Below are positions 17,831 through 56,320 of a stretch of 64,000 nucleotides of DNA, in pieces. Source of the DNA: Candidatus Kaiserbacteria bacterium (GTDB taxonomy: Bacteria > Patescibacteriota > Minisyncoccia > Phycocordibacterales > UBA2100); contig JACPLD010000002.1 in assembly GCA_016186765.1 (NCBI GenBank), positions 35,272 through 99,271 on the forward strand, in the 5' to 3' direction. Within the stretch, counting starts at the first letter, position 1; each line of letters opens with the position of its first letter. A program made the translations under genes and the position numbers. Under the pieces are notes generated by a model. It ran no database searches, was not told the DNA's origin, and saw only the letters and a list, made by a program, of their open reading frames with translations.

Positions 17831-19180
17831 ATGCTTAGGGCTCTCAAAGAACTCGTGCACACGCTCGTTCCCTCGCCGATCCTCACGAGGATCCTCTCCG
17901 CCTACCACTTTATGCTCGCTTCCCTTGCGGCAGTCGTCTACGGCTTTCCTTCGCGTTTTCTCTTCGTCGTCGGGGTCACCGGGACAAAAGGAAAAACGAC
18001 CGTGACGGAGATGGTAAACATAATTCTCGAAGAAGCGGGGCATACTACCGCTCTCATAAACTCCATACACTTCAAGATTGGGGAGAAATCAGAACCGAAT
18101 CTCACGCGCATGTCGATGCCGGGACGTTTCTTCATTCAAAAGTTTTTGAGCGACGCCGTACGCGCTCAGTGCACAGCTGCCGTCTTAGAGATGACCTCCG
18201 AAGGCGCGAGGCAACATCGCCATCGATTCATCGATCTGAACGCGCTCATCTTCACCAACTTCGCACCTGAGCACATCGAATCTCACGGCTCGATCGAGGC
18301 GTATGCGAATACGAAGTTCGAGATCGGCAAAGAGCTCGCGCGCTCGAATAAACGTCCACGCTTCATCGTGGCAAATGCTGAGGACAAAGAGGCTACTCGC
18401 TACCTTAGCTTGCCCGTCGAATACGCACTTCCCTTTTTGCTCGCTGCAGAAAACGCCTCGGCCGACGAGCACGGCGGCTCGTTCATGATCGATGGAACAC
18501 GAGTAACGATTAGTTTGCCCGGCGCGTTTTCGCTACGCAACGCGCTTTCAGCGGCTATGCTTGCGCGCGCGCTGGGGATCGCACCCGCGGTGATCGCACG
18601 AGCACTCGAAAAACTGAAAAAAGTCCCCGGGCGCGCGGAGCGAATCGAAGCCGGCCCCGCCTTCGCCAAGGCTTCGGCGGGCAAGCAGAGTTTCACCGTC
18701 GTCGTCGATTATGCGCATACGCCCGATTCCCTCGCAGCGCTCTACGACGCCTATCGCAACGTAAAGAAAATTTGCGTCGTAAGCGCAACGGGCGGAGGGC
18801 GAGATACGTGGAAACGCCCCGTCATGGGACACATCGCCGAGGAACAATGCGAGACCGTCATCCTCACGAACGAGGATCCATACGACGAGGATCCACAGCA
18901 GATTGCCGAGGACATCGCGCGGGGTATGAGCAAGCGCCCAGAAATTATCATGGACAGGCGCGAGGCGATTTCGAGAGCTCTCGAAATCGCCCTGAGTATG
19001 TCGAAGGGCATCCCTCGACAGGCTCGGGATCCCAGTAATCAAAACGGCATCGCCGTTTTGATTACTGGGAAAGGCACAGATCCTTCCATCTGCGGACCAC
19101 GCGGCACAAAAATTCCCTGGAACGACGGGCAGGTTGCGCGCGAGGAGCTCGAAGCTCTCCTCAAGAAAGGCACGGTGTAA
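17831..19180 (+). CDS. murE: Mur ligase, MurE-like (UDP-MurNAc-tripeptide synthetase)
   Basis: GVTGTKGKTT P-loop and the DYAHTPDSL signature. Confidence 0.65.
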   Translation: MLRALKELVHTLVPSPILTRILSAYHFMLASLAAVVYGFPSRFLFVVGVTGTKGKTTVTEMVNIILEEAGHTTALINSIHFKIGEKSEPNLTRMSMPGRFFIQKFLSDAVRAQCTAAVLEMTSEGARQHRHRFIDLNALIFTNFAPEHIESHGSIEAYANTKFEIGKELARSNKRPRFIVANAEDKEATRYLSLPVEYALPFLLAAENASADEHGGSFMIDGTRVTISLPGAFSLRNALSAAMLARALGIAPAVIARALEKLKKVPGRAERIEAGPAFAKASAGKQSFTVVVDYAHTPDSLAALYDAYRNVKKICVVSATGGGRDTWKRPVMGHIAEEQCETVILTNEDPYDEDPQQIAEDIARGMSKRPEIIMDRREAISRALEIALSMSKGIPRQARDPSNQNGIAVLITGKGTDPSICGPRGTKIPWNDGQVAREELEALLKKGTV

Positions 19181-23434: not shown

Positions 23435-24073
23435 CTAATGGGGCAGGCCCAGAATGTAGTGCTCGAGGGCATATTCGAGCTCGAAGCCCGAACGACGAGC
23501 CTCGTGGGGAAGCTCGGCCAATTCTGCGACGAGTCTTGCCGCTCGCGCTTGCGCTGCGCCGCGCGATTTCAAAAACATGTCCTTCGCCCCCCAAAAGAGA
23601 ACACCGTGGATCGCTTCGGGTGCTTCATCGCGCGAAAGCGCGCGCTGGTACTCGACCCAAAGCCGCTTCTTGTCGCCCCCTTTAAGCGCATAGGCAAGCG
23701 CGAATATTCCGCTGCGCTCCTTTTCCTTCCTCGTATCGAATCGCTTCGAAGTCTCCGCGTATTTCTCGAGCTTCTTTCGCGTATCTGCATCGAGCTTTTC
23801 CTCCAGAATAAAAAATGGTTCGTCGGATTCTTTTAGATGAATGATGTTGTCGAGCACAACGCTTCGCATCTCTTCGTTTTCGAACGTTCCGTCAAGCACA
23901 ATAGCGCATCTCTGTCCAAACATACCACCTCCCGCAAGTGCCGCTCGGAGATCTTCGAGCGAATTCGCATCTGTTATCCGAACGACGTCCCGCTTGCCCT
24001 GAGCTCGTCGAAGGGCCTTGTTCATCTCCGCGCGTGCTTTTTCTCGGTCAGTTCCAAGAAATAGGTGCAACAT
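23435..24073 (-). CDS. Hypothetical protein, possibly a short DNA polymerase III delta (HolA-like) subunit
   Basis: Position directly downstream of polA and weak N-terminal resemblance only. Confidence 0.3.
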   Translation of the reverse strand: MLHLFLGTDREKARAEMNKALRRAQGKRDVVRITDANSLEDLRAALAGGGMFGQRCAIVLDGTFENEEMRSVVLDNIIHLKESDEPFFILEEKLDADTRKKLEKYAETSKRFDTRKEKERSGIFALAYALKGGDKKRLWVEYQRALSRDEAPEAIHGVLFWGAKDMFLKSRGAAQARAARLVAELAELPHEARRSGFELEYALEHYILGLPH

Positions 24074-28385: not shown

Positions 28386-28684
28386 TGTTAGTGTTTGAAT
28401 AGCCCTTCGACAAGCTCAGGATAAACGAGGCACACAATTTCGGGCGATGCTTTCGACATGAAAGTTGCGGCGTGGTTCTAAGGATAGGGGCCGTAAGGCC
28501 GCAAGGCGGCCTACCGCCACCGTCCTCGAAAAAGCCACCATCGCCCGAAGCTATGTGCCTCGGCAGCGTTACAAAAATGAATTACAAAAAGAGGTATACG
28601 TAAACTGCGCGAAAGAGTATCACATAATATTTAAAAGTCAAGAGCCTCGTTCCCCGCGTCAGACGCGGCAAATGAGCCTCCGCT

Positions 28685-30121: not shown

Positions 30122-31858
30122 CTAGAGCCACCAGAAGAGCGCCTCCCCGATGTTCGTAAAGAGAGTGCCGACTGCTTCTCCAATTGTTCCGAAGCTTTTA
30201 CCCATCACCGAAAAGAAACTCCGCGGCGGAGGTGTACCCTCTTCCCCCTCGCCGGGAATAAATCCATCAATTGGCGAAAACGGCTCGAACGGCGTGTCCG
30301 AAATCTGCGGCTCTTCGGTTTCACTCACTCCTTCCACATCTGCGCTTTGCGATGCATCGCCTCCAACATATGGGGAAGAAGTAGTGCCCGCGATGTCCTC
30401 GATCGCTTCGCTAGCACCTCGGGCACTCTCCCCTCCCGCAAAGCCTGACGGAATCGATTCGAATGGTTCGGAGGCGACATTAATGGGCTCAACTATCGTG
30501 GGATCTCCCGGCACGAGCGTCGACTCGTCGGCGGAAAGTGTCAAGATCAAACGTCCGCGCTCAAGCGGCGGCTTCTCCTCGCGCACGGGCAGCTGCTCCT
30601 CTGCTTCGCCCACTGACTCCTGCTGCAACGTTTCCTCGGAGGAAAAAGCACTGCTCACAAATTCGCCCACCGGCGCCACGACGTTGTCTAAAATCGTACG
30701 GACGAACGAATCTGCACCCTCCTGCCCCTCAAGATCTTTCGCTGTTACGTTCACACTCGGCCGCTTTGTGTTTTGCGCGAGGTTCGCGATGATGTCGGCC
30801 GGGGAAGGCAGCGGTTTGGGAAAGGTGGGCATGGTAGTGACGGTGACCCCGAAGTCTTTGTTGTAGTAATAGCTAGGCTCTTGCGGGGTGTGCGCGATTG
30901 TGCGGACCGTGGAACCACCCGCGCTGCCGCTTCCACCTCCGCTTCCGCCGTTACCGAACACCCAATTTGCGACATTGCTCAAAATCGGCGAATCCCAAAA
31001 CGACTGCCTCGGCACACCGGACTCACTCGGCGGTCCTCCTCGCGCGTCGCCAGAAGATTTGCTCGGAGCAGCACCAGAGTCTGCTATGTTTCCAATTCGT
31101 TGCGCCGCAGAAGTTTGTGCACCCGGAGTTTCCCCCCCTGCCGAGGACGCGGGCGCTTGGGCAGTGGGAGCTTGCGCTGCGATTTGTCCGGTCGGTGCTG
31201 TAGGCGCTTGAGCGGCTGGTTCAGTAGGTTTTGTAGCATCGGAAGCCGGAATAACTTCCGCAGCAGTAGGCCTTGTGGGGTATTCGGGAGCAGACTCGTA
31301 ACCAGCCGCAGGCTTAGGAGGTGTGCACCCTTCACAAACAGTACCCGTGTTAAGCCCCGCGGTTGGTTTAGTAAGCTGCTTCAATGATTCCTCATCCCCC
31401 TCTTCGATTTGTTGGGGATTCCCTTCCTCATCCACGTAATAATCAGCTTTACAATTCTCGACTCCAACACAGTGACCTTGCACATCTACATTGGCTTCTT
31501 CCTTAAATTCAACGCACGACCTCCCGAACAAGTTAGTTATCTGCGCCGGCTTACCTGTTGAGGAATCATATCCCGGAAATGTCGCCGGATACCATCTGCT
31601 CTTGTCACCCACCTCAAGATAGCGCGCCGTTGGAGTTTCAGAAGGACATTGTTTATTCGAGCCTGTTAATGACTGCGGCACATCTGACAGCAGAGATCCG
31701 CCCGAGCTGCCGGACGATGCTGGGGCGCTTACGTCCGCAGCCGCCAGCTGCCCTTTAGGCAGGACCGCATCAGCATCCGGCTCTAGCACCCAGACCATCG
31801 TCCCAAATGCAAGACACAAACCGAAGAATACAAGAAGTCTCTGCGCTCCCTGCTGCAT
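30122..31858 (-). CDS. Large secreted low-complexity protein (Ala/Pro/Thr/Gln-rich)
   Basis: N-terminal signal anchor and PTEPAAQAPTAPTGQIAAQAPTAQAP repeats; 578 aa. Confidence 0.5.
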   Translation of the reverse strand: MQQGAQRLLVFFGLCLAFGTMVWVLEPDADAVLPKGQLAAADVSAPASSGSSGGSLLSDVPQSLTGSNKQCPSETPTARYLEVGDKSRWYPATFPGYDSSTGKPAQITNLFGRSCVEFKEEANVDVQGHCVGVENCKADYYVDEEGNPQQIEEGDEESLKQLTKPTAGLNTGTVCEGCTPPKPAAGYESAPEYPTRPTAAEVIPASDATKPTEPAAQAPTAPTGQIAAQAPTAQAPASSAGGETPGAQTSAAQRIGNIADSGAAPSKSSGDARGGPPSESGVPRQSFWDSPILSNVANWVFGNGGSGGGSGSAGGSTVRTIAHTPQEPSYYYNKDFGVTVTTMPTFPKPLPSPADIIANLAQNTKRPSVNVTAKDLEGQEGADSFVRTILDNVVAPVGEFVSSAFSSEETLQQESVGEAEEQLPVREEKPPLERGRLILTLSADESTLVPGDPTIVEPINVASEPFESIPSGFAGGESARGASEAIEDIAGTTSSPYVGGDASQSADVEGVSETEEPQISDTPFEPFSPIDGFIPGEGEEGTPPPRSFFSVMGKSFGTIGEAVGTLFTNIGEALFWWL

Positions 31859-32006
31859 ACCTACATGGTAGCGCTTTTTGCCCTCTTCAAAATGCTCTGC
31901 GTGAACAACCTCTCAACCCAGTTTCGGCTTATACAAAAGTCCATAGAGAAGAGGCCGGACGTTCGCACGCGCGAATGCCGGCCCCGACTCCTCGCTGTCG
32001 CATCCT

Positions 32007-32285
32007 TCATCGGGAAGCAGCCTTTGGTGGCCTGCTGATGAGTCTGACTCCACCGTAAGCCTCGTCGCCTTCCACTCGGACAATGACCCCAACCAAGCTT
32101 CCGTCGGGAAGCCTGACTTTCGTCCAGCACCATTCGACTCCTTTTTCGTCAGGAGCAGGGTGGCACCCGTTCTCGGGGGCAGCCTTCTCAGCCGCCAAAA
32201 CTGCCGGTGGGGGTGGATCTTCAGCGTAGGCCGCAAAGGGCAGCGCCGCTGCAGCGGCAGCAATCAACATCAGAAAGGCGCGCAT
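32007..32285 (-). CDS. Small secreted hypothetical protein
   Basis: MRAFLMLIAAAAAALPFAAYA signal peptide; the start lies just downstream of a REP copy. Confidence 0.3.
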   Translation of the reverse strand: MRAFLMLIAAAAAALPFAAYAEDPPPPAVLAAEKAAPENGCHPAPDEKGVEWCWTKVRLPDGSLVGVIVRVEGDEAYGGVRLISRPPKAASR

Positions 32286-32348
32286 GGCGGCCTCCTTAAG
32301 CTGTTTGCGATCCCACTTATGGCAGGGACCTTCTCCGCACAACGCACC

Positions 32349-32373
32349 TGCGGTCAAGGTAAGACCTTGACCG
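32349..32373. repeat. REP-like palindrome CGGTCAAGGT-aag-ACCTTGACCG (copy 1)
   Basis: Same 21-25-nt perfect hairpin as at 34897 and 35632. Confidence 0.85.
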
Positions 32374-32657
32374 TTAAACACGCTCTGCGGAGAATCCCTG
32401 CCTGCCTGCAAACAGGCCTGCCCACGATATGAGGAGTCTTTGAAAGAACAACGCCTGCCCGCCGAAGCCTCGGCGTAGGCGGGGACTTTTGTAAGTCCGG
32501 CTTTGCGCTCCACCTCGGGAGTCCAAGGCCGGACCAGCAATGGAGTACTACAACTGCATCATATGCCTTCTGATGCGTACGTGAAGAGCATTATGCCAGA
32601 ATGAAAGCGTTTGTCAACCGATTGACAGGTGGGACACTTTTGGTACACTCCATACAT

Positions 32658-32897
32658 ATGGCAACGAGCAAAACACGTTTGCAAATCACGCTTGCCCCCG
32701 ACGTGGGTCCCGCGATCAAGCTCCTCGCCAAGCGCGACCGCGTACCCGCAGCGACCAAAGCCGCGCAACTCCTACGCCAGGCCATCGAGATGGAGGAGGA
32801 TCTGTACTTGTCGAAGATCGCAGAGGAGCGTGACGTTCCCGGCGCAAAATGGCTCACGGAAAAAGAGTTCTGGAAAGCTGCAATGAAAAAGAAATAA
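32658..32897 (+). CDS. Ribbon-helix-helix type II antitoxin
   Basis: 79 aa; RLQITLAPDV beta-strand followed by two helices. It ends 3 nt before the RelE/ParE gene. Confidence 0.55.
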   Translation: MATSKTRLQITLAPDVGPAIKLLAKRDRVPAATKAAQLLRQAIEMEEDLYLSKIAEERDVPGAKWLTEKEFWKAAMKKK

Positions 32898-32900
32898 CCC

Positions 32901-33176
32901 ATGCGCTATAGTGTTCTTTTTGTACATGCCGTCTTGGCAAAAGACGTACCGTCACTCGACCGTAGCGTGTTGCAGCAGATACACGAAGCCATCGATTCCA
33001 AATTGAAAACGGATCCGGATGTCTTCGGGAAACCGCTCCGCCGCTCGCTCAAAGGTTATCGCTCGCTTCGCGTGGGCAATTATCGGATCGTATATCGAAT
33101 TGAAAAAGCGCTGGTACGCGTTGTTGCGATCATTCACCGCTCGCGTGGATACGAAGAGGTCTCCCGTCGGACGTAA
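32901..33176 (+). CDS. RelE/ParE-family type II toxin
   Basis: LKGYRSLRVGNYRIVYRIEKALVRVVAIIHRS is the classic RelE/ParE core. Confidence 0.8.
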   Translation: MRYSVLFVHAVLAKDVPSLDRSVLQQIHEAIDSKLKTDPDVFGKPLRRSLKGYRSLRVGNYRIVYRIEKALVRVVAIIHRSRGYEEVSRRT

Positions 33177-33216
33177 GAAACAGAAAGACCGCACTTCGCA
33201 CGAGCGCGGTCTCGAG

Positions 33217-33564
33217 TCACTCTCCATACGTCCCATACTGCCCGTACCGATAGAGTAGCATCTGAATGCTCTCGATGTCGGCACCAAGCACATACTCGCG
33301 GCAGACGAGTGTCGCCGGGACGCCCCCTTGGTGCGTCAACCGCCACAGCGCGTCTGCGCACACAGTGTCCTTCTCTATGTCGCACTTCATGTACAGAACG
33401 CCTGCATCATCAAGAAAGCGCTCCAAATAGAGACAGTACGGGCACCATGCCGTCCTAAAGACGACAACGGGTTTCACCTTGCCATCGCACACGATGGCGT
33501 TCGCCGGCAATGGAGCGAGCGCGATGAGCGCCGCGCACAAGAAAAGCCAACGTTTCATCGTCAT
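33217..33564 (-). CDS. Secreted glutaredoxin-like thiol-disulfide oxidoreductase
   Basis: Signal peptide followed by the WCPYC active site. Confidence 0.6.
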   Translation of the reverse strand: MTMKRWLFLCAALIALAPLPANAIVCDGKVKPVVVFRTAWCPYCLYLERFLDDAGVLYMKCDIEKDTVCADALWRLTHQGGVPATLVCREYVLGADIESIQMLLYRYGQYGTYGE

Positions 33565-33664
33565 GTCCTCCTGAACACTGTTGCAACTCTCACGAGTGTG
33601 GCACGGCTACACGCTCGAATCAAACAGAAGTGGCCGCTCCTTCGAGAGCGACCACTCAAGGTCT

Positions 33665-34228
33665 TCACGGCATCTTGCCGAGCAGGTACTTCCTGGGACT
33701 TTCGGCTACAGTGCCTTCTTCTGGCCCGGGGTCTTTCCCGCACAGCCCGCCTTGCCTGCGAAGCTCGTAGCCCGGTACATTGGACTGCCGGATGAACGCC
33801 ATCCGTCCGCAGTAGCTGGGAACAGCGACCCCAACTTCGACGGGCCTGTCCTTCGACGGGATCTGCATCGCAACCCCGTCTGAAAAGGGATAGGGCTCCC
33901 TGTACATGAAACAGGATTCCTCATCCCATTCCATCTCCTGATTGCCGTTAACATCAGGAGCTTTCGTCTCGAACCCATCGACCAGATAGCCGTTGGCGTC
34001 CCGTCCAACGATTTTCGGGACAGGTTGGCCAGTCGCGGGATTCAGCTTCCATGCCGGGTGCGACCGGCAGAACTCTACCCAGAGGTAGAACATGGTTTGA
34101 AGCTCCGCGGGCTTCTTGATTAACTCGGTGTTGATACGAGTCGGAGGAAGCGGCTGGCCGTCTTGGGCCATTGCGCCGTTTACACCCAGGCCCAGCAGAA
34201 ACGCTAGGGCCGCGACGGTGATTCTCAT
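33665..34228 (-). CDS. Secreted hypothetical protein
   Basis: MRITVAALAFLLGLGVNGAMAQ signal peptide and four Cys residues. Confidence 0.4.
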   Translation of the reverse strand: MRITVAALAFLLGLGVNGAMAQDGQPLPPTRINTELIKKPAELQTMFYLWVEFCRSHPAWKLNPATGQPVPKIVGRDANGYLVDGFETKAPDVNGNQEMEWDEESCFMYREPYPFSDGVAMQIPSKDRPVEVGVAVPSYCGRMAFIRQSNVPGYELRRQGGLCGKDPGPEEGTVAESPRKYLLGKMP

Positions 34229-34357
34229 CCTGATTTCCTTTCTCCTTATGCAGTTGTCAAGTGTCAACCCCCTGTAAACTAAATCACGGCCCATGATTGC
34301 TGTCCAGTTGTAGCGCAGGATATCCCTACTCATACTCTAGTGACAAACTTCTAGCGT

Positions 34358-34888
34358 ATGGCCGGACACAGCAAGTGGGCGCAGATCAAGCGCCAAAAGG
34401 AGAAGACCGACGCGGCCAAAAGCGGTCTGTGGAGCAAACTAGGGAAGCGCATCACAGTCGAATCGAAAAAGGCAAAAGGCGACATGAACGCGCCCAACCT
34501 TCGCTCCGCGATAGAGCTCGCCAAGTATGCGAACATGCCGAAAGGCAACATCGAGCGCGCGGTAGCCCGCGGCACTTCGGCTGACGCCGCGGCGCTCGAA
34601 GCGGTCACCTACGAAGCCTACGGACCGGGCGGCGCGGCTATTGTCATCGAGGCTCTCACGGACAGCCGCAACCGCACGTCGCAAGAGATCAAACACATCC
34701 TTTCTAAAAACGGCCTCGCGCTCGCTTCCCCCGGAAGTGCACTCTGGGCATTTGAAAAAACTACCGAGGGATACGAACCGAAAACGAATGTTCCTCTTTC
34801 GGACGCAGACAACGAGCAGTTGATAAAAATCTTGGAGGAGATCGACGCCCACGACGACGTCGAGAATGTATATACGAACGCCGAGTAA
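34358..34888 (+). CDS. yebC: YebC/PmpR-family DNA-binding regulator (short form)
   Basis: MAGHSKWAQIKRQK... Confidence 0.8.
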   Translation: MAGHSKWAQIKRQKEKTDAAKSGLWSKLGKRITVESKKAKGDMNAPNLRSAIELAKYANMPKGNIERAVARGTSADAAALEAVTYEAYGPGGAAIVIEALTDSRNRTSQEIKHILSKNGLALASPGSALWAFEKTTEGYEPKTNVPLSDADNEQLIKILEEIDAHDDVENVYTNAE

Positions 34889-34896
34889 TGCACCCA

Positions 34897-34923
34897 CAGC
34901 GGTCAAGGTAAGACCTTGACCGC
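34897..34923. repeat. REP-like palindrome AGCGGTCAAGGT-aag-ACCTTGACCGCT (copy 2, 12-bp stem)
   Basis: Perfect 27-nt palindrome immediately 5' of the RAYT gene. Confidence 0.85.
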
Positions 34924-34942
34924 TGATGGTATACTTGCCTCA

Positions 34943-35647
34943 ATGGGCGAGCGAAAAGTTTTCTTCCAGCCCGGCGAGTGGTTCCACTGCTATAACCGCG
35001 GCGTGGACAAGAGGCGTGTATTTATGTCGCCAAGTGACTACCGTCGTTTTCTAGCGCTCATGTACGCATGCAACAACATTGAACCAATTCATGTCAGCGA
35101 CTACGAGCGCGGACTTAGAAGTAAGAAACTTGCCGATGTCCTCGCCATCGCACGGAAAGCACCGCTTGTAGACATCGGCGCGTACAATCTGATGCCAAAC
35201 CATTACCATCTTCTCTTGCGGGAGAGGATCGACGGCGGACTAACGTCCTTCATGCGGAAGCTCGGAACAGCGTATACGATGTATTTCAACATCAAATACG
35301 AGCGAGTCGGCGCACTCTATCAAGGTGCATTCAAGGCGAAGCATGTAAGAACCGACGGATACTTCAAGCGGCTGGTGAACTATATTCACGGCAACCATGC
35401 GGAGCTGACAGAACCAAAATGGAAGGAAGGGAAAGTCAAAAATGAGACTGCGTTATTGAAGGCTCTTGTCGCGTATCCACACTCGAGTCTCCGAGATTAC
35501 TACAGAGATCCTCGGCCAGAATCAGTGATAGTCAGCACAACTTCGCTTCTTGATGTTATCGATGCGATGCCGCGATTAAGGGATATCTTAAAGGATGCGC
35601 GAGTCTTCGCACACCTCCATGATGGGGAGCTCGAGCGGTCAAGGTAA
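34943..35647 (+). mobile_element. REP-associated tyrosine transposase (RAYT, IS200/IS605 Y1 HUH family)
   Basis: FHCYNRG N-terminus, HUH motif MPNHYHLLL, and catalytic-Tyr helix RLVNYIHGNH. It is flanked by REP copies 2 and 3. Confidence 0.75.
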
Positions 35648-35656
35648 GACCTTGAC
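35632..35656. repeat. REP-like palindrome GCGGTCAAGGT-aag-ACCTTGACC (copy 3)
   Basis: Overlaps the RAYT stop and sits 10 nt before the ruvC start. Confidence 0.85.
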
Positions 35657-35665
35657 CAGTTCGGT

Positions 35666-36139
35666 ATGAAAGTACTTGCCATTGATCCCGGCTACGGACG
35701 CTGCGGCATTGCGGTCGTAGAAAAAGAAAACGGAAAAGAAATCCTCATTTATTCCTCATGCGTCGAAACTCCTGCAACGAGTGAGTTTCCGGAGCGGCTC
35801 GCAATCGTTGCGGATGAATGTGCGCGCCTTCTCAGAGAATACAAACCAGGCGCACTCGTGCTTGAGAAGCTGTATATCACCAAAAACCAGAAGACCGCAA
35901 TGCGCGTTGCCGAAGTGCGCGGCGCTCTTATCAGCGCAGCGGCGCGTGCGGGTGTTCCCATCTCCGAGTACACGCCGAGCGAGGTAAAGGCCGCAGTTAC
36001 GGGTAACGGCCGCGCCGACAAGCACGCGGTAACGAAGATACTGCACGCGCTCGTGAAGATTGAAAAAGAGATAAAACATGACGACGAGTACGATGCAATA
36101 GCGATAGCGGTCACGCATCTCGCACGCGTACGTCATTAG
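35666..36139 (+). CDS. ruvC: Crossover junction endodeoxyribonuclease RuvC
   Basis: MKVLAIDPGYGRCGIAV... Confidence 0.85.
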   Translation: MKVLAIDPGYGRCGIAVVEKENGKEILIYSSCVETPATSEFPERLAIVADECARLLREYKPGALVLEKLYITKNQKTAMRVAEVRGALISAAARAGVPISEYTPSEVKAAVTGNGRADKHAVTKILHALVKIEKEIKHDDEYDAIAIAVTHLARVRH

Positions 36140-36157
36140 CGCTACAATTGCCCAAAC

Positions 36158-38533
36158 ATGATCCGAAAAATCCGGAAGTTGTGGCGGAAGATGCCGGCGT
36201 GGATGGAGCTTTCACTTGTCGCGATGGCGGCGTTCTTTTTAATTGCGCTCGGGAGCGCGGTCGTGTGGGCGACTCTGACACCTATCCCCGCCATCGACAA
36301 CTTTGAGAATCGCAAGGTCGCAGAGTCGACAAAAATCTTCGATCGCACCGGCAACATTGTGCTTTTCGACGTCTATGGCCAGATCCGCCGCACCTCGGTA
36401 CCGCTCGAGGAAATTTCTCCATATATCCAGAAAGCGACGATCGCGATCGAAGACACCGAGTTCTACAACCACAGAGGCTTCCGCCCACTCTCCTTTGCGC
36501 GCGCACTGCTCGCGAATCTGAAAAGCGGAAGCTTTAGCCAGGGCGGATCCACCATCACACAGCAGGTCGTGAAAAATGCGCTGCTGACGCAGCGAAAAAC
36601 CATTGGCCGCAAGCTCGAGGAGATCATCCTCGCGCTCCGGCTCGAGCGCGCCTACACGAAGGAACAGATCCTGCAGACCTACCTCAACGAGACTTCCTAC
36701 GGTGGAACCATCTACGGGGTGCAGGAAGCAAGCCAGTACTTCTTCGGCGTCGACGCCAAAGACATCGACCTCGCGCAGGCCGCCTACCTCGCCGCATTAC
36801 CGCAAGCGCCCACACGCTACTCGCCCTATGGTAGCCATCGAGACCTTCTCGATGCCCGCCAAAAGCTCGTGCTGCGGCGCCTTCTCGATGAGAAACTGAT
36901 AACCGAGGAGGAGTACGAACAAGCTGCCGAAGAAGCCGTCACGTTCCGCGGCGGACAGACGGCAGGCATCAAGGCGCCGCACTTCGTCTTCTTCATCCGC
37001 GAGTACCTCGAAGAAAAGTATGGCGCCGACACCGTAGCGCAGGGGGGCCTTCGCGTCGTCACCACGCTCGACTGGGAGCTGCAGGAAAAAGCCGAAGAGG
37101 TTGTCAAAAAGCACGCGCCCTCGATGGAGAGAAATTTCAACGCTGGCAACGAGGGCGTCGTCGCGATCGAGCCCTCAACCGGGCAAATCCTCGCCATGGT
37201 CGGCTCACGCGACTACTTCGAAGAGAAAATCGACGGCGCGGTCAATGTGACGACCTCCTTCCAACAGCCGGGCTCGGCCTTCAAGCCCTTCGTCTATGCA
37301 ACCGCACTCGAGCGCGGCTACACGCCGGAGACAGTTGTCTTCGATCTGCAGACGCAGTTTTCGACAGCCTGCTCGCCGCAGGAGGTGACGAACTCTACGC
37401 CGCCCTGCTATGCGCCAACGAGCTTCGACAATACCTTCAAGGGTCCGGTGACATTCCGCGAAGCGCTCGCGCAATCCCTCAACATTCCCGGCGTGAAAAC
37501 CCTTTACCTCGTCGGCGTCGAAAACGCCTTGAAGATGGCAGAGCGCGTCGGCATCACGACACTCGGCAACGCGGCGGGCTATGGTCTCACGCTCGTTCTC
37601 GGCGGTGGCGATGTGACGCCCTTGGAGCTCACGGGCGCGTACGCCGTTCTCGCAAACGACGGTGTGAAAAATCCCCCGACGGGAATCCTTCGCGTGGAGG
37701 ACCGGGAGGGAAACGTCTTGGAAGAGTACGAGGAGCAAAGCGAACGAGTGATGGAAGCGCAGATCGCGAGACAGATCAGCGATATCCTTGCCGACAACGT
37801 CGCGCGCACACCCGAGTTTGGCGCAAACTCGCCGCTCTACTTCCCGGGCTACGACGTCGCGGCAAAAACAGGCACGACGAATGATTACTGGGACGTCTGG
37901 ATTCTCGGCTACACACCCTCAATTGCGATAGGTGCGTGGGCCGGCAACAACGACAACACGCCGATGGAAAAACGTATCGCTGCGTTCATCATCGCGCCGA
38001 TGTGGCACGAGATCATGGCGTTCGCGCTCGAAACGTATCCAGCAGAGTCGTTCACGCCACCTGCGCCGGAAAATGATGAGGCGCTCCCTCCGGTATTGCG
38101 GGGCAACTGGAACACCGACCCTTCACAGGGCGTGCACGAGATCCTCTACTGGGTCGACAAAGATAATCCCCGGAGCGGTCGCACCTCCAACCGCAGCGAT
38201 CGGCAGTTTCTCTACTGGGAGTATCCGCTTTCGCTCTGGGGTGCAAGCCTCGGCGCACCGAATGCGCCTCCCTTAGGATTTATCATCACCTCTCCTCCCA
38301 ATACTGGAGTCGTGCGCGCCTTCGAGCCGTTCACGCTCTCGGCGATGCACCCGCATCCGGAACTTGTGGAGCGCGTCTCCTACTACCTCAACGGTGGCTA
38401 TGTCGGTGCCTCTGTGCAAGCCCCATATGCCCTCACGCTCGTGCCGGAAGGCACCGGCGCGATGCAGCTCACCGCGGTTGCGGAAACCGCACTCGGCGCC
38501 GAAACGAGCACCATCATGTTCACCATCCAATAA
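36158..38533 (+). CDS. Class A penicillin-binding protein (glycosyltransferase plus transpeptidase)
   Basis: GT51 motifs (EDTEFYNHRGF, GGSTITQQ) and transpeptidase motifs (SAFKPF, KTGTT). Confidence 0.85.
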   Translation: MIRKIRKLWRKMPAWMELSLVAMAAFFLIALGSAVVWATLTPIPAIDNFENRKVAESTKIFDRTGNIVLFDVYGQIRRTSVPLEEISPYIQKATIAIEDTEFYNHRGFRPLSFARALLANLKSGSFSQGGSTITQQVVKNALLTQRKTIGRKLEEIILALRLERAYTKEQILQTYLNETSYGGTIYGVQEASQYFFGVDAKDIDLAQAAYLAALPQAPTRYSPYGSHRDLLDARQKLVLRRLLDEKLITEEEYEQAAEEAVTFRGGQTAGIKAPHFVFFIREYLEEKYGADTVAQGGLRVVTTLDWELQEKAEEVVKKHAPSMERNFNAGNEGVVAIEPSTGQILAMVGSRDYFEEKIDGAVNVTTSFQQPGSAFKPFVYATALERGYTPETVVFDLQTQFSTACSPQEVTNSTPPCYAPTSFDNTFKGPVTFREALAQSLNIPGVKTLYLVGVENALKMAERVGITTLGNAAGYGLTLVLGGGDVTPLELTGAYAVLANDGVKNPPTGILRVEDREGNVLEEYEEQSERVMEAQIARQISDILADNVARTPEFGANSPLYFPGYDVAAKTGTTNDYWDVWILGYTPSIAIGAWAGNNDNTPMEKRIAAFIIAPMWHEIMAFALETYPAESFTPPAPENDEALPPVLRGNWNTDPSQGVHEILYWVDKDNPRSGRTSNRSDRQFLYWEYPLSLWGASLGAPNAPPLGFIITSPPNTGVVRAFEPFTLSAMHPHPELVERVSYYLNGGYVGASVQAPYALTLVPEGTGAMQLTAVAETALGAETSTIMFTIQ

Positions 38534-38536
38534 AAG

Positions 38537-38618
38537 ACCAGTGAACAGAGAACAGTAAACAGCGAACAGAAGGGTGGGCTGTCTTTTGATTTACTGTTCT
38601 CTGTTTGCTGTTCGCTGG
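38537..38618. terminator. Long hairpin built from tandem GAACAG-type heptads; bidirectional terminator between PBP1A and dnaN
   Basis: Left arm CCAGTGAACAGAGAACAGTAAACAGCGAACAG, right arm CTGTTCTCTGTTTGCTGTTCGCTGG. Confidence 0.6.
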
Positions 38619-38621
38619 TCT

Positions 38622-39716
38622 CTATCTATTAAGGGGCATCACAAGGTACGTGAACGATGGATCCGAGACGCCCCTGATCACTAAGGGCTTCCCCGCACCT
38701 GAAAAGCCGAGAATGATGGAATCGGATTCGATAGTCGGCAGGCAATCTGCGAGGTAGCCGATGTGAAAATTGATGTCGAGGTCCTCCCCCGAGAGCGCGG
38801 CATCAAGCGAGTCTGACATCTCACCTATATCCGCGCTGCGCGCGGTCGCACTGAAAATCTTTCTACTAGGGTAAACATGGAAGCCGATGTGTTGATCATT
38901 GCCCGAAAAAACCCGTGCTTTCTTCAGCATTTCAGAGAGATCGCTTTTCAAAACGGTCGCTTCCGTAGAAAAGATCTTCGGGACGATCTCCTTGTAGTTC
39001 GGAAACGTGCCGTCAACGATGCGCGAGATGAAACGGACACCATCAGCGGAGACCGAAAGTTGTGATTCGTCAGCGGTAAGCTTCACCTGCGCTCCTTCAG
39101 CGTGTTCGAGCACGTGGGAAAGTTCGAGTGCGTGCCTGAGAGGAAGGAGCACCTCCTCTCCCCGCTCACTCGAGCCGATCATCTTCTCGGCGAGCCTGAA
39201 CGAATCGGTTGCGACACAGATAACCCCAGTGGCTCCCACTAAAAGGTAGATGCTCCCCAACTCCGGTCGTATCATTGAGGGTGAGGCCGCATACGAAACA
39301 GCCTGCAAGCCTCGCAAGAGTTGCTCTCGAGAAACATTCTCCCCCTTCCCGTCTGTCGGTGGCGAGAGGGTCGGGAACTCATCGTGCGGCATACCCTTTA
39401 TAACGGTCTTCGTCCCCCTCGATTCAATGAGGAGGTTGCCATCCTCCGCCGACAAAGTCACCTTGTCACCGTGGGTTGAGCGCAGAGTTTGCGAAAGCAC
39501 GATAGCGGGCACCGCGATGATCCCTTTTTCATCAACCTCACCAGGGACAACAACCTCAACACCTGCTTCAAGATTTGTTGCCCGTAGTACGATGGTTTTC
39601 CCACTCACCTCAAGAAGGATGCAGGATAGTGTTGGGAGTGTTTCCTTCTTACCCGTGAGCCTCTCCGCAATGAGAACACCACCCAGAATCTTTTCTTTGG
39701 TTGTTGATGCTCTCAT
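38622..39716 (-). CDS. dnaN: DNA polymerase III beta sliding clamp
   Basis: Full-length DnaN-like sequence and its position after dnaA. Confidence 0.85.
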   Translation of the reverse strand: MRASTTKEKILGGVLIAERLTGKKETLPTLSCILLEVSGKTIVLRATNLEAGVEVVVPGEVDEKGIIAVPAIVLSQTLRSTHGDKVTLSAEDGNLLIESRGTKTVIKGMPHDEFPTLSPPTDGKGENVSREQLLRGLQAVSYAASPSMIRPELGSIYLLVGATGVICVATDSFRLAEKMIGSSERGEEVLLPLRHALELSHVLEHAEGAQVKLTADESQLSVSADGVRFISRIVDGTFPNYKEIVPKIFSTEATVLKSDLSEMLKKARVFSGNDQHIGFHVYPSRKIFSATARSADIGEMSDSLDAALSGEDLDINFHIGYLADCLPTIESDSIILGFSGAGKPLVIRGVSDPSFTYLVMPLNR

Positions 39717-39943: not shown

Positions 39944-41302
39944 CTACGAATGGATTAATGTACGAAGGTGGTCGATTTCCTGCTCGAGTGACGTGTTCGA
40001 TTTTATCTCCTCTTTTATCTTCTCGCATGAATGAATTACCGTCGTGTGGTCGCGCCCGCCGAGCTTCTCGCCGATCGAGGGATACGACACACTGAATTCT
40101 TCCCGCAGCATGTACATAATGACTTGCCGTGGCTTCACCACTTCTTTCTTGCGCGTTTTTTCGTAAATGCTCTTTTCGTTCACCTCGTAGTAGCTTGCGA
40201 TACGGCGCACCACCTCTTCAACAGATATCCCTCTATTCGGCTTGATATTGTGCTTGATGAGCGCGCGCACGTCCGCTTGTGTCACTCCCTTTCCTTTCAG
40301 CTGGGAGCGGCACACGATCATGTTGAGTATACCCTCGAGCTCGCGGATATTGCCGCGGACGTTCTCCGCGATATAGAGGATAATGTCCTCGGGAATAGAA
40401 AAACCGTGCTGGTCGAGCTTCGCCTTGATGATCGCGATGCGAGATTCCATGTCTGGCTCTGGGATCTCTGCGATCATGCCGGCGCTAAAGCGGCCGCGCA
40501 GACGCTCTTCAAGTCCGGAGAGCATTGCGGGGTGCTTATCAGAAGAAAAGACGATCTGCTTGTTGTTGTCGTAGAGCGTGTTGAAGAGGTGGAAGAGCTC
40601 TTCCTGTGTTTTTTCTGTGTTCGCGATGAACTGCACATCGTCCATGACGAGTATATCGTATGCCCGGTACTGATCTTTGAATGAGTTGGCACGACCGGCG
40701 CGCACCGCGTTTAAGTAGTCGACAGAGAAACGCTCACTCGTGACGTAGAGAACCTTCTTGCTCGCATGCGTTTTCTTGAAACGGTTCCCGACGGCCTGAA
40801 TGAGGTGTGTCTTACCGCGTCCGGTTGCCCCGTAAACGAAGAGCGGATTGTATGCGAGGCCCGGACGCTCGATGACTGCTTTCGCGGCAGCGTGCGCGAG
40901 CTGGTTGAAGGGTCCGACGACGAACGTCTCGAAGGTGTAGCGCGGGTTCAGATTGTCGCGCTTGTCGATATAGAGGTTGTCGAGGTCGAGTGATGCGTTC
41001 TCTGGTGCCTGAACACGCGCCGGCCGCCTCTCCGCGGCCGCGGGAGCGCGGTGCACGACGTACTCGACGCTGCGGATGCTCGCGTCAAGGCCGCGGAGGG
41101 CTTTGAGGACGAGCTTGTTGTGCTTCTCGACGAGCCACTCCTTCACGATCTTAGAAGGAACGGCGACTTGGACGACTCCGCTGGAGCGCCCGGCGATGTC
41201 GGTGTTCTTGAACCACGTTCGAAAACTTGCCTCCGATGTGCCAAGCTCGATCTGGACGAGAGCATTTTGCCAAAGCTCGCGGTTGCTTAGGGGAAACGAC
41301 AT
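39944..41302 (-). CDS. dnaA: Chromosomal replication initiator DnaA
   Basis: GATGRGKTHL, LMDDVQF, and the C-terminal VLREEFSVSYPSIGEKLGGRDHTTV. Confidence 0.9.
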   Translation of the reverse strand: MSFPLSNRELWQNALVQIELGTSEASFRTWFKNTDIAGRSSGVVQVAVPSKIVKEWLVEKHNKLVLKALRGLDASIRSVEYVVHRAPAAAERRPARVQAPENASLDLDNLYIDKRDNLNPRYTFETFVVGPFNQLAHAAAKAVIERPGLAYNPLFVYGATGRGKTHLIQAVGNRFKKTHASKKVLYVTSERFSVDYLNAVRAGRANSFKDQYRAYDILVMDDVQFIANTEKTQEELFHLFNTLYDNNKQIVFSSDKHPAMLSGLEERLRGRFSAGMIAEIPEPDMESRIAIIKAKLDQHGFSIPEDIILYIAENVRGNIRELEGILNMIVCRSQLKGKGVTQADVRALIKHNIKPNRGISVEEVVRRIASYYEVNEKSIYEKTRKKEVVKPRQVIMYMLREEFSVSYPSIGEKLGGRDHTTVIHSCEKIKEEIKSNTSLEQEIDHLRTLIHS

Positions 41303-48782: not shown

Positions 48783-49271
48783 TTATTGGACAAGCGCCTC
48801 GCGAGCTGTTCGCACGGGTGCGACGATGCCACCGACGTGTTCACGGTCCTCTGCGACCCCCGCTGCGATCCGCTCCTTGATGTCGAGACTCCACGCGAGC
48901 TCGTGCAATTTGCTTTCGGCGAGCTTTGGAATGTAGACTTCCGATGTAGGCTCGATTTTCTGTTCTCGCTTGCCTGTTTTCTGTTTGCTTCTCAGCTCAT
49001 TGCTCCAGAGATAGAGCTTGCTTCGTACAAGGTAGTAGAAGCCATTTTCCAAACCGAGAACGAAGGGGCGGCCGTTCCACTGCAGGAACGCGAGCGCTGC
49101 CGCAAGCCCCCCGATGCCAAGTATCAGTGGGCCCGCGAGATAGAGCGGGAGCACACGCCATAGGAGGTACGCCGCACCGGCGCCACCTGCCATATAGATG
49201 AACTGCTTGAAGGTGAGCGGTCCGAAGATCTTGTCTTCGACCTCGATGAATTGGGGGACCTGAAATTGCAT
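48783..49271 (-). CDS. VirB3/PrgI-like small T4SS membrane protein
   Basis: 162 aa, two TM helices near the N-terminus, immediately upstream of the VirB4-like genes. Confidence 0.4.
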   Translation of the reverse strand: MQFQVPQFIEVEDKIFGPLTFKQFIYMAGGAGAAYLLWRVLPLYLAGPLILGIGGLAAALAFLQWNGRPFVLGLENGFYYLVRSKLYLWSNELRSKQKTGKREQKIEPTSEVYIPKLAESKLHELAWSLDIKERIAAGVAEDREHVGGIVAPVRTAREALVQ

Positions 49272-49306
49272 ACTCGAGAGAGCAGCGAACAGAGAACAGC
49301 GAACAG
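49272..49306. repeat. GAACAG heptad repeat block (AGCAGCGAACAGAGAACAGCGAACAGTTAACG)
   Basis: Same heptad family as 38537-38618; inverted partner at 49669-49708. Confidence 0.75.
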
Positions 49307-49687
49307 TTAACGCAGTTTCGCGCGGAGCGCGTACAGCATTCTGCCGGTTTCGTCCAGCTGCATCTCAATTGTACTACAGTCTTTTTCGGTACAGTACGAG
49401 AGTTCTTTCGCAATTGTGAGGAGGGTTTCGAGCTCAGTCAGCGAGCCGTGCGATATCCTTAGAAAGTTTGCAAATTCCTTGGGAGTATTTCTTCCGTAGC
49501 CTTCGGCAATATTGGCTGCGACAGAGACTCCAGCACGCCGCATTTGGGAAGTCAGGGCAAATAGCTCATCTTTGGGAAATTTTTTCGTCAGTGTATATAC
49601 TCCAAGCGAAAGCTCAACGGCTTTCTGCCAAACCAAAAGCTTTCTATAAGAATGGCTACCCTCTAGATTTTTCTGTTCTCTGTTCAC
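49307..49687 (-). CDS. Four-helix-bundle protein (23S rRNA intervening-sequence protein family)
   Basis: YRKLLVWQKA...LTSQMRRAGVSVAANIAEGYGR...SLTELETLL. The N-terminus MNREQK is encoded by the heptad repeat itself. Confidence 0.7.
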   Translation of the reverse strand: MNREQKNLEGSHSYRKLLVWQKAVELSLGVYTLTKKFPKDELFALTSQMRRAGVSVAANIAEGYGRNTPKEFANFLRISHGSLTELETLLTIAKELSYCTEKDCSTIEMQLDETGRMLYALRAKLR

Positions 49688-49708
49688 TGTTTTCTGTTAT
49701 CTTGCTCA
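49669..49708. repeat. GAACAG heptad repeat block (complement: GATAACAGAAAACAGTGAACAGAGAACAG)
   Basis: Inverted relative to 49272-49306; the pair brackets the four-helix-bundle gene. Confidence 0.75.
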
Positions 49709-50314
49709 CTGCGGCGGTTCTCTGTAGGGATCGTCGTGAATATCTTTGCGCGCACTCGAGGGCTCCCCAGCTCTATATGCTCCTGAGGTTGGACCGCGAA
49801 CGGCCTTCTCGGTTCCCTGTGGAGGTGGAGGTGTTGCCGGTACGACAGGAAGTGGTGCTGCAATCACTGAAGTGTTTTCCTCCCTTTCCCCTATAACCTT
49901 TCCCCTATCACCTGTACTTGCAAGCACCTGCGCGCGTGTTGCCTCGACGCTACTCACCTCTTTTTCTTTCGCCTCCGGATGCTCGAGTTCCCGCTCGAGT
50001 TCTTGCCGAATGGGCTCAAACACGATGCGCGAGACATCACTTGCAAGAGAATTTGTAACTTCATCAGAAACTTCAAGGTCAGCTTTTAAGTTTTTTGCCA
50101 GCTCTTCTGGCGGCTGAAATCCAAGCAAGGTGAGCATCACGTTGTTTTCGAGCAGTTGCCACTGATCCAAATGCAGATGTTTTGTGTCGGCGAGCTCACG
50201 CAGCTGTTTTTGTATGCCCACGGATGTTATGGCATCTTGGACGACCTTAGGCAGCTCTTTGAACCGATCCTGGATTTTTTCGTCGAGCTCTTTTTTTGAG
50301 ATGTCAGCGTTCAT
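49706..50314 (-). CDS. Hypothetical acidic/coiled-coil protein
   Basis: Start at MNADISKK, 5 nt after the VirB6-like stop; Pro-rich C-terminus. Confidence 0.35.
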   Translation of the reverse strand: MNADISKKELDEKIQDRFKELPKVVQDAITSVGIQKQLRELADTKHLHLDQWQLLENNVMLTLLGFQPPEELAKNLKADLEVSDEVTNSLASDVSRIVFEPIRQELERELEHPEAKEKEVSSVEATRAQVLASTGDRGKVIGEREENTSVIAAPLPVVPATPPPPQGTEKAVRGPTSGAYRAGEPSSARKDIHDDPYREPPQ

Positions 50315-55170: not shown

Positions 55171-55320
55171 AGGCAAAGAGCGCTCGAGCTGAACGTGTCG
55201 AGTTTCCACGCTAAAAGTATACCTCCTATATGGGGAATTCACGGGGATAACGCGTGGATAGGGAGCAGGTTTAAGGGGAAAGGTTTCAGGTTTCTTAACC
55301 TAGCACCTTGCCCCTAACAC

Positions 55321-56208: not shown

Positions 56209-56320
56209 AGGGTATAGGGTACAGGTGTTAGGTTATAGGGGCAATGCAGAGAGGTGAGTTTCTCCTAGAACCTGAAACCTAGAACCTGATCCCTGTGCAA
56301 AGAGTGATACAATTTTTCCC

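Follow-up and report, generated by a model that had tools for sequence, protein, structure and literature searches.

Almost all characterised repetitive extragenic palindromic (REP) elements and REP-associated tyrosine transposases (RAYTs) come from Proteobacteria, Cyanobacteria and Bacteroidetes, and the Patescibacteria, which also go by the name of Candidate Phyla Radiation (CPR), have ultra-small genomes. Among the IS200/IS605 insertion sequences (ISs), known members carry both end hairpins on one strand. A survey of complete genomes, whose data set predates most CPR genomes, found that TnpA_Y1 genes outside ISs favour large genomes (Quentin 2018, PMC6006769). The same work reported subclass 2.1 without REP-like hairpins, some members having terminal inverted repeats GGGG[AT][CG]A[CG], and with a helix-turn-helix (HTH)-like distal domain, and it called in-frame REPs inside tnpA_REP unique to subclass 2.4 while noting that some 2.8 members carry one (PMC6006769). 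Among open-access papers we found none that links REP or RAYT to Patescibacteria or CPR. Here we describe, in a 64-kb stretch of Candidatus Kaiserbacteria DNA (hereafter the window), a gene of this kind bracketed by perfect hairpins, together with the family to which it belongs. We interpret the segment as a REPtron-like cassette, made of a class-2 Y1 HUH gene of RAYT type, present once in the window, and its cognate hairpins, with a probability of about 0.6; this weight, like those behind the graded wording used below for the alternatives, is our own estimate and was not computed.

The hairpin-gene-hairpin unit occupies 34897-35657, about 760 bp, between the repair genes yebC and ruvC, and the features of the locus are the following:

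32351-32373, + strand: solo hairpin copy with a stem of 10 bp and the loop AAG, located between divergent genes
34358-34888, + strand: yebC, 176 aa, with Pfam TACO1_YebC_N and Transcrip_reg; left boundary of the insertion site
34897-34925, + strand: cognate hairpin upstream of the gene, with the perfect 13-bp stem CAGCGGTCAAGGT / ACCTTGACCGCTG and the loop AAG
34927-34935, + strand: putative extended -10-like box TGGTATACT, read directly from the sequence
34943-35647, + strand: RAYT-like class-2 TnpA_Y1 gene, 234 aa, with HUH H87/H89, Y147 and N151
35111-35134, + strand: decayed relic of an internal hairpin, GGACTTAGAAGTAAGAAACTTGCC, corresponding to G57-LRSKKL-A64, which no longer folds
35637-35657, + strand: downstream cognate hairpin, 9-bp stem, loop AAG
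35666-36139, + strand: ruvC, 157 aa, Pfam RuvC at 136.6 bits; right boundary of the insertion site

A gene bracketed by palindromes had been noted at this position in a preliminary description of the DNA, and this observation is confirmed apart from small corrections. The 234-aa HUH Y1-like open reading frame (ORF) recognised there lies at 34943-35647 (+) and contains LMPNHYHLLL and NYIHGNHAE; the palindrome seen on both sides is an exact 21-mer, GGTCAAGGTAAGACCTTGACC, at 34901-34921 and 35637-35657; and the count of at least three copies is borne out by a third exact 21-mer at 32352-32372, the loop reading AAG on the + strand in all three. The 3' copy does overlap the stop codon, as described: TAA (35645-35647) sits at the stem-loop junction, spanning the last stem base and the loop, and the 5' arm of this hairpin codes for the final residues ERSR. 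The 5' stem, given as 12 bp, is in fact 13 bp long, and the gap before the ATG of ruvC (35666) is 8 nt instead of 10. Dinucleotide shuffles of the sequence predict 0 copies of the 21-mer against the 3 observed, and a search of the 64 kb tolerating 3 mismatches or a variable loop added none to these. As single-stranded DNA (ssDNA), the upstream, downstream and solo hairpins fold with -17.7, -11.6 and -14.3 kcal/mol (z -7.0, -5.2 and -3.9, respectively). An identical arrangement is carried by three independent Logan assemblies (L001-L003), a tblastn search detected one RAYT-like gene in the window, and the exact protein is labelled by NCBI, on a 195-kb contig, as 'transposase [Candidatus Kaiserbacteria bacterium]'.

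The upstream hairpin ends 17 nt before the ATG and is directly followed by the extended -10-like box TGGTATACT, which itself ends 7 nt before the ATG; boxes of the TGGTATAA type occupy the equivalent place in many homologous loci. From this spacing we infer a near-leaderless mRNA. A simple scan requiring a -35 hexamer returned no canonical sigma-70 promoter at the hairpins, so that the extended -10 reading keeps this inferred status. A terminator scan that covered the two flanking copies found no T-tract terminator at either, and an Rfam scan of 31000-37000 (E<=1) gave no match, which indicates that the hairpin is not a known RNA family. The solo hairpin lies 2.5 kb upstream of the gene, the sequence then continuing GTTAAACACG, and no RAYT remnant was seen beside it.

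The protein matches Pfam Y1_Tnp (PF01797) over residues 61-150 with 30.7 bits against a gathering cut-off of 23, in agreement with the family proposed in the preliminary description. An alignment of 27 homologues (45-70% identity) shows that H87, H89, Y147 and N151 are invariant and that a helical C-terminal extension is conserved (EPKWK..G...N and YPYSSL.DY, the latter being YPHSSLRDY in the window). The family consensus YIHANPAE is replaced by YIHGNHAE, a change of P to H, in the window protein and its closest relatives. In the classification of Quentin 2018 (PMC6006769), the Y-x3-N(P) motif puts the protein in class 2, on the RAYT side, and not in class 1 (IS200, Y-x3-Q). A search of PDB sequences with the family profile yielded marginal matches only (ISDra2 TnpA, E 0.05; 4er8, E 0.9), and a structure comparison was thus needed. 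The AlphaFold2 model built from the 27-homologue alignment (mean predicted local distance difference test score, pLDDT, 89.7; predicted template modelling score 0.88) has a predicted fold that matches 4er8, 2vhg and 2ec2 and is closer to the TnpA_REP fold than to IS608, ISDra2 or IS200 TnpA. The protein keeps the full catalytic residue set, HUH and Y-x3-N, on a predicted RAYT fold.

The window gene belongs to a large family in ultra-small bacteria whose genes each come with their own matching hairpins. A word-indexed search returned 592 homologues, and all the named ones are assigned to Kaiserbacteria, Paceibacterota, 'Patescibacteria group' or an unclassified 'bacterium'; an exhaustive profile search yielded 1,084 clusters at 50% identity (E<=1e-30). 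A scan of Joint Genome Institute (JGI) metagenomes returned more than 526 loci, 80 of which were kept for analysis. In these, perfect hairpins were sought within 80 nt upstream of the start and from -45 to +110 nt around the stop, and a pair was called matched when both sides agreed in loop length and in the six stem bases at the apex. The 68 genes with enough flank include 38 with such a pair, whereas a set of 129 other ORFs from these loci, each 150 aa or longer, includes 1. The hairpins mostly stand 1-50 nt before the ATG, beside a -10-like box, and near the stop codon, and their stems are specific to each locus (e.g. ATGTCAAGGC, GGGAGGC, CCAAAGGC, CACGAGGC, GTGAAGGT, GCGAAGGG). The stem positions 2-4 from the loop are nonetheless nearly invariant, with A in 39/39, G in 38/39 and G in 37/39, a pattern that the search did not demand and by which the apex reads AGG-N-loop-N'-CCT. 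The two flank copies are identical over the first 6 nt from the loop (by construction), remain more than 65% identical as far as 10 nt and have fallen to background by about 13 nt; this decay with distance delimits a repeat unit that reaches some 10-12 nt from the loop in either direction, devoid of an asymmetric tag. One locus, L056, holds two RAYT-like paralogues (3-629 and 1506-2189), 49.5% identical and separated by 0.9 kb, whose cognate hairpins differ (CCGAAGG/CCGGAGG type and GTGCGAAGGG-tgg, respectively). Tandem half-site repeats (GAAGGTGCGAAGGGTGT x3) stand ahead of the second paralogue.

About 14 of about 70 loci also have an intact copy of their own hairpin within the coding region, 153-175 nt downstream of the ATG (codons ~52-58; for example in L050, L062, L064, L076, L080, L084, L089, L096, L104, L110, L113, L115 and L118). 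The peptide Q-G-(P/K)-T-L found in the family is the translation of CAAGGT-NNN-ACCTTG, while in L113 and L118 the internal hairpin is read in another frame (IEVEP/MEVEP). Furthermore, wherever the loop of the flanking copies spells a stop codon, the internal loop has the complementary letters (taa/tta in L050, tga/tca in L115). With at least two reading frames in use and stop-codon loops flipped, it seems from these sequences to be the DNA structure, rather than the peptide, that is kept. The equivalent site in the window has decayed (ssDNA fold z -1.3), and in the model it is the loop with the lowest pLDDT (67), situated after the first helix and before the second strand. Given this in-frame hairpin, one may ask if the enzymes act on the very gene that encodes them.

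Hairpins are also found away from the genes. Beyond the flanking pairs, the related loci contain 19 copies in 233 kb, of which about 8 are internal and most of the others lie less than 1 kb from the gene. An exact-pattern scan for GGTCAAGGT-NNN-ACCTTGACC in a collection holding one genome per species, the source genome being outside it, returned 35 loci (L004-L038), to be compared with about 9 chance hits by our own estimate. About 22 of the 35 are in CPR genomes (Saccharibacteria, Yanofsky-, Wolfe-, Vogel- and Kaiserbacteria), with several copies per genome and with loops and outer stems specific to the genome, and 16 of 22 CPR sites have no covering ORF of at least 100 aa. Yanofskybacteria RIFCSPLOWO2_01_FULL_49_17 holds 5 exact-core copies with loop TGA/TCA, one of which adjoins a RAYT homologue about 22 nt before its ATG (L034), and one Saccharibacteria metagenome-assembled genome holds 5 with loop TTC/GAA (one GTC) and outer stems AATT...AATT. 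Such behaviour resembles that of REPs, at the low density of about one exact core per 50-60 kb. The 18-nt core GGTCAAGGT/ACCTTGACC is identical across several CPR classes, complementary outer flanks lengthening the stem; such sharing could reflect horizontal spread or constraint from a conserved protein.

Comparison with relatives bears on how the unit came to lie between yebC and ruvC. The yebC-gene-ruvC arrangement occurs in 0 of the 80 metagenome loci, and each exact protein was seen in a single genomic context. The two closest homologues looked up (~70% identity) are located beside YceG (L119) and after RecG (L122); both have a hairpin closely related to that of the window, TGGCAAGGT-aag/ctt-ACCTTGCCA, and in L122 the stop codon likewise falls in the hairpin loop. 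The closest RuvC relatives (76-81% identity) keep ruvC, a penicillin-binding protein (PBP) gene and dnaN downstream. On the other side of ruvC, yebC (176 aa) is 9 nt away in L127 and 84 nt away in L126, and neither a RAYT gene nor an AGG-apex hairpin is present at either junction. These intact, hairpin-free junctions indicate that the 760-bp unit is an insertion here, or else was precisely lost in the relatives. The preliminary view that yebC and ruvC are normally contiguous is upheld by L126 and L127, and not by L124, in which yebC is not adjacent to ruvC. In L126, the spacer of the empty site (1211-1294) is filled by short tandem repeats of the CTAGAAGCT type and not by a hairpin. YebC itself is short in this lineage, 176-182 aa (34358-34888 in the window, 662-1210 in L126, 2461-2991 in L127) versus ~240 aa in the NCBIfam/TIGR models, and it scores below equivalog cut-offs, part of the middle domain being apparently missing; since relatives keep the short form, the insertion is not what shortened the gene. 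No close homologue or palindrome copy was found in phage, plasmid and viral-contig collections, which hold little CPR material, and a phage or plasmid origin is unsupported on that basis.

By analogy with TnpA_REP and IS608 TnpA, a dimeric enzyme would bind the folded hairpin on ssDNA exposed at the replication fork and would read its AGG/CCT apex. It would then cut the DNA alongside the hairpin, by way of a 5'-phosphotyrosine intermediate, and rejoin it, with the result that hairpins are copied or moved and, more rarely, the entire hairpin-gene-hairpin unit. More speculatively, given the -10 box directly after the upstream hairpin, binding at this site could also autoregulate the near-leaderless transcript.

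That the cassette works like a RAYT/REPtron is suggested by its predicted structure, its catalytic motif and its flanking palindromes, and to this extent, with the Y1_Tnp match, the RAYT interpretation of the preliminary description is supported. Several observations nevertheless weigh against the REPtron-like reading. Two defining features of canonical RAYT/REP systems are absent, the GT[AG]G-tagged REP and the equivalog profile: GT[AG]G is found at 4 of 156 hairpin feet where about 6 are expected by chance, no shared flank or tag was found beyond about 12 nt from the loop, and the protein scores 30.6 bits against a cut-off of 80 for NCBIfam REP_Tyr_transpos (NF047646), a result that points to a distant relative of these RAYTs and not to an equivalog. 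The Y-x3-NP motif reads NH in the clade of the window. As the stems are perfect palindromes, the loop alone reports orientation, and across the family the flanking loops are inverted in 19 cases, direct in 15, as in the window, and otherwise arranged in 5, a mixture at odds with the rules for REPtrons and for IS200 alike. The divergences of lower stem and protein are correlated weakly and not significantly (rho 0.09, permutation p ~0.07), for which reason phylogenetic co-evolution of stem and protein is not claimed and the claim kept is that of locus-specific copy identity. Finally, a single solo hairpin is present in the 64 kb of the window, close to the gene, which makes genome-wide dispersal in the source organism no more than a possibility.

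A rival reading appears rather unlikely to us, namely that of a minimal, autonomous IS200-type element, about 760 bp long, with the hairpins as its ends and the solo hairpins as footprints or decayed copies instead of REPs sustained in trans. The architecture of the window is that of IS200 in element size, single gene and subterminal hairpins on the same strand, the insertion between yebC and ruvC is polymorphic, the empty sites lacking even one hairpin, and there is no synteny among homologues. Set against this, Y-x3-N(P) instead of Y-x3-Q is the class-2 signature (Quentin 2018, PMC6006769) and the predicted fold leans to TnpA_REP. The presence of one copy in 64 kb, with a single context for each exact protein, and the lack of a tnpB partner also argue, with the motif, that the unit is not a member of IS200/IS605. 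In addition, half of the family loci have inverted flanking loops, and the solo hairpins, of which other CPR genomes hold several each, are perfect palindromes and intact. A related proposal, which we also hold to be improbable, is that the unit is a still-active, self-mobilising class-2 Y1 element, an intermediate between IS200 and domesticated RAYTs that is spreading in CPR and for which the internal hairpin is a functional self-target; if this were true, the internal hairpin would serve, for example, autoregulation or programmed cutting of the element's own gene.

The opposite view, that of a fully domesticated and immobile enzyme whose hairpins act in cis as operator, mRNA 3'-end stabiliser or terminator and internal attenuator, the solo copy being coincidental, draws on the hairpins hugging the start and stop codons in most loci, on the internal copy lying within the mRNA and on the low copy number in the window. 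We consider it less likely still, as the scan detected no T-tract terminator at the flanking copies of the window, other CPR genomes each contain several solo copies distant from any RAYT gene, the cassette changes position between close relatives and is precisely absent from their yebC-ruvC junction, and the catalytic residues are invariant. Short palindromes do arise randomly, but chance or an assembly artefact is very hard to reconcile with the shuffles, with the identical sequence in three independent assemblies and with a family-wide excess of matched pairs of 38/68 over 1/129, and we regard this explanation as refuted.

Several features of the surrounding DNA deserve mention. Between the solo hairpin and yebC lies a variable island (32288-34340) comprising an antitoxin-like ORF (32601-32897), a ParE toxin (32901-33176), a glutaredoxin-like gene (33217-33564, - strand) and an ORF of 222 aa without Pfam hits (33665-34333, - strand); its position is occupied in the relatives by different content, a PemK toxin in L126 and ruvB in L127. 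To the right, dnaN (38622-39716, - strand) and dnaA (39944-41302, - strand) coincide with the cumulative GC-skew minimum at ~38-40 kb, from which the replication origin is probably about 5 kb right of the cassette, with yebC, the RAYT gene, ruvC and the PBP gene head-on to the leftward fork. Replication and recombination genes are neighbours in three cases (ruvC, yebC, dnaN and dnaA in the window, RecG in L122, DnaB and RecR within 5 kb in L119), and this proximity may be a coincidence in small genomes rich in such genes. A second repeat family, a CCCGCC...GGCGGG hairpin, is present at 18655-18686 and 32453-32484; the two copies are 91% complementary, and 80 nt separate the second from the solo RAYT hairpin. 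Position 32454 is precisely where the Logan contig L001 begins, which would be expected of a multi-copy element. Three further repeat families occur in the window, none of which has the AGG-apex hairpin form: GCCCTTCGACAAGCTCAGG (23991-24016 and 28402-28427), ACAG/CTGT-rich runs flanking the dnaN region (38535-38624, 48956-49311 and 49669-49703) and CCTTTCCCCTATAACC (49880-49917, 55257-55283 and 56212-56249).

Taken as a whole, the family is apparently an undescribed, widespread and unusually compact RAYT-like system of ultra-small genomes. Its compactness lies in a unit of ~10-12 nt on each side of a short loop, in three invariant apex base pairs, in a locus-specific lower stem and in a low copy number. 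The chemistry itself is not surprising; the recognition code is readable, and the self-embedded hairpin is odd. Because the unit is so compact and readable, the code (AGG/CCT apex plus variable stem) is directly testable with oligonucleotides. The invariant apex offers a search key for such elements in any CPR genome, and the presence or absence of the cassette between yebC and ruvC provides a natural before-and-after pair for the insertion chemistry.

The relationship to described systems can be stated subclass by subclass. With E. coli TnpA_REP (RAYT, YafM; subclass 2.2 of Quentin, group 2 of Bertels), the window protein shares the predicted fold at 14-17% identity; it is longer (234 aa versus 165), has an extra helical tail and carries NHYH as HuH motif where the E. 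coli enzyme has DHLH. In contrast to the E. coli REPtron, the palindromes here are short and perfect, with an AGG/CCT apex, no GTAG guide and no bulge, and they occur at low copy number, with direct flanking copies, in an ultra-small host genome. Subclass 2.1 (Bertels group 1, 'TIRYT') gives the best fit of motifs, with a median length of 238 aa, NH[YF]H, an FQ-type middle motif, a Y[IV]HLNP-type motif and SS in the tail, for which the window protein and its family have LYQG/LFQG, YIHANP and YPYSSL; by this comparison of length and key motifs, it looks the most similar. Cognate hairpins are the rule here, unlike in subclass 2.1, and the Pfam search of the window protein gave no HTH match. The in-frame hairpin inside the gene is common to this family and to subclass 2.4 (Bertels group 4; Cyanobacteria, Bacteroidetes), but here it precedes the HuH motif (codons ~52-58) and is of the short AGG-apex type. 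Subclass 2.6 and class 3 ('atypical secondary structures') have, as here, flanking hairpins without GT[AG]G and copies elsewhere in the genome; they differ in their hosts (Bacteroidetes; Planctomycetes and Acidobacteria), in the Y-x4-Q motif of class 3 and in structures described as weaker, as against the perfect 9-13-bp stems found here. Lastly, the TnpA proteins of the IS200/IS605 family (IS608, ISDra2, IS200) have in common with the cassette the HUH/Y1 chemistry, hairpin bounds recognised on one strand, a size of ~0.7 kb and integration without visible target duplication.
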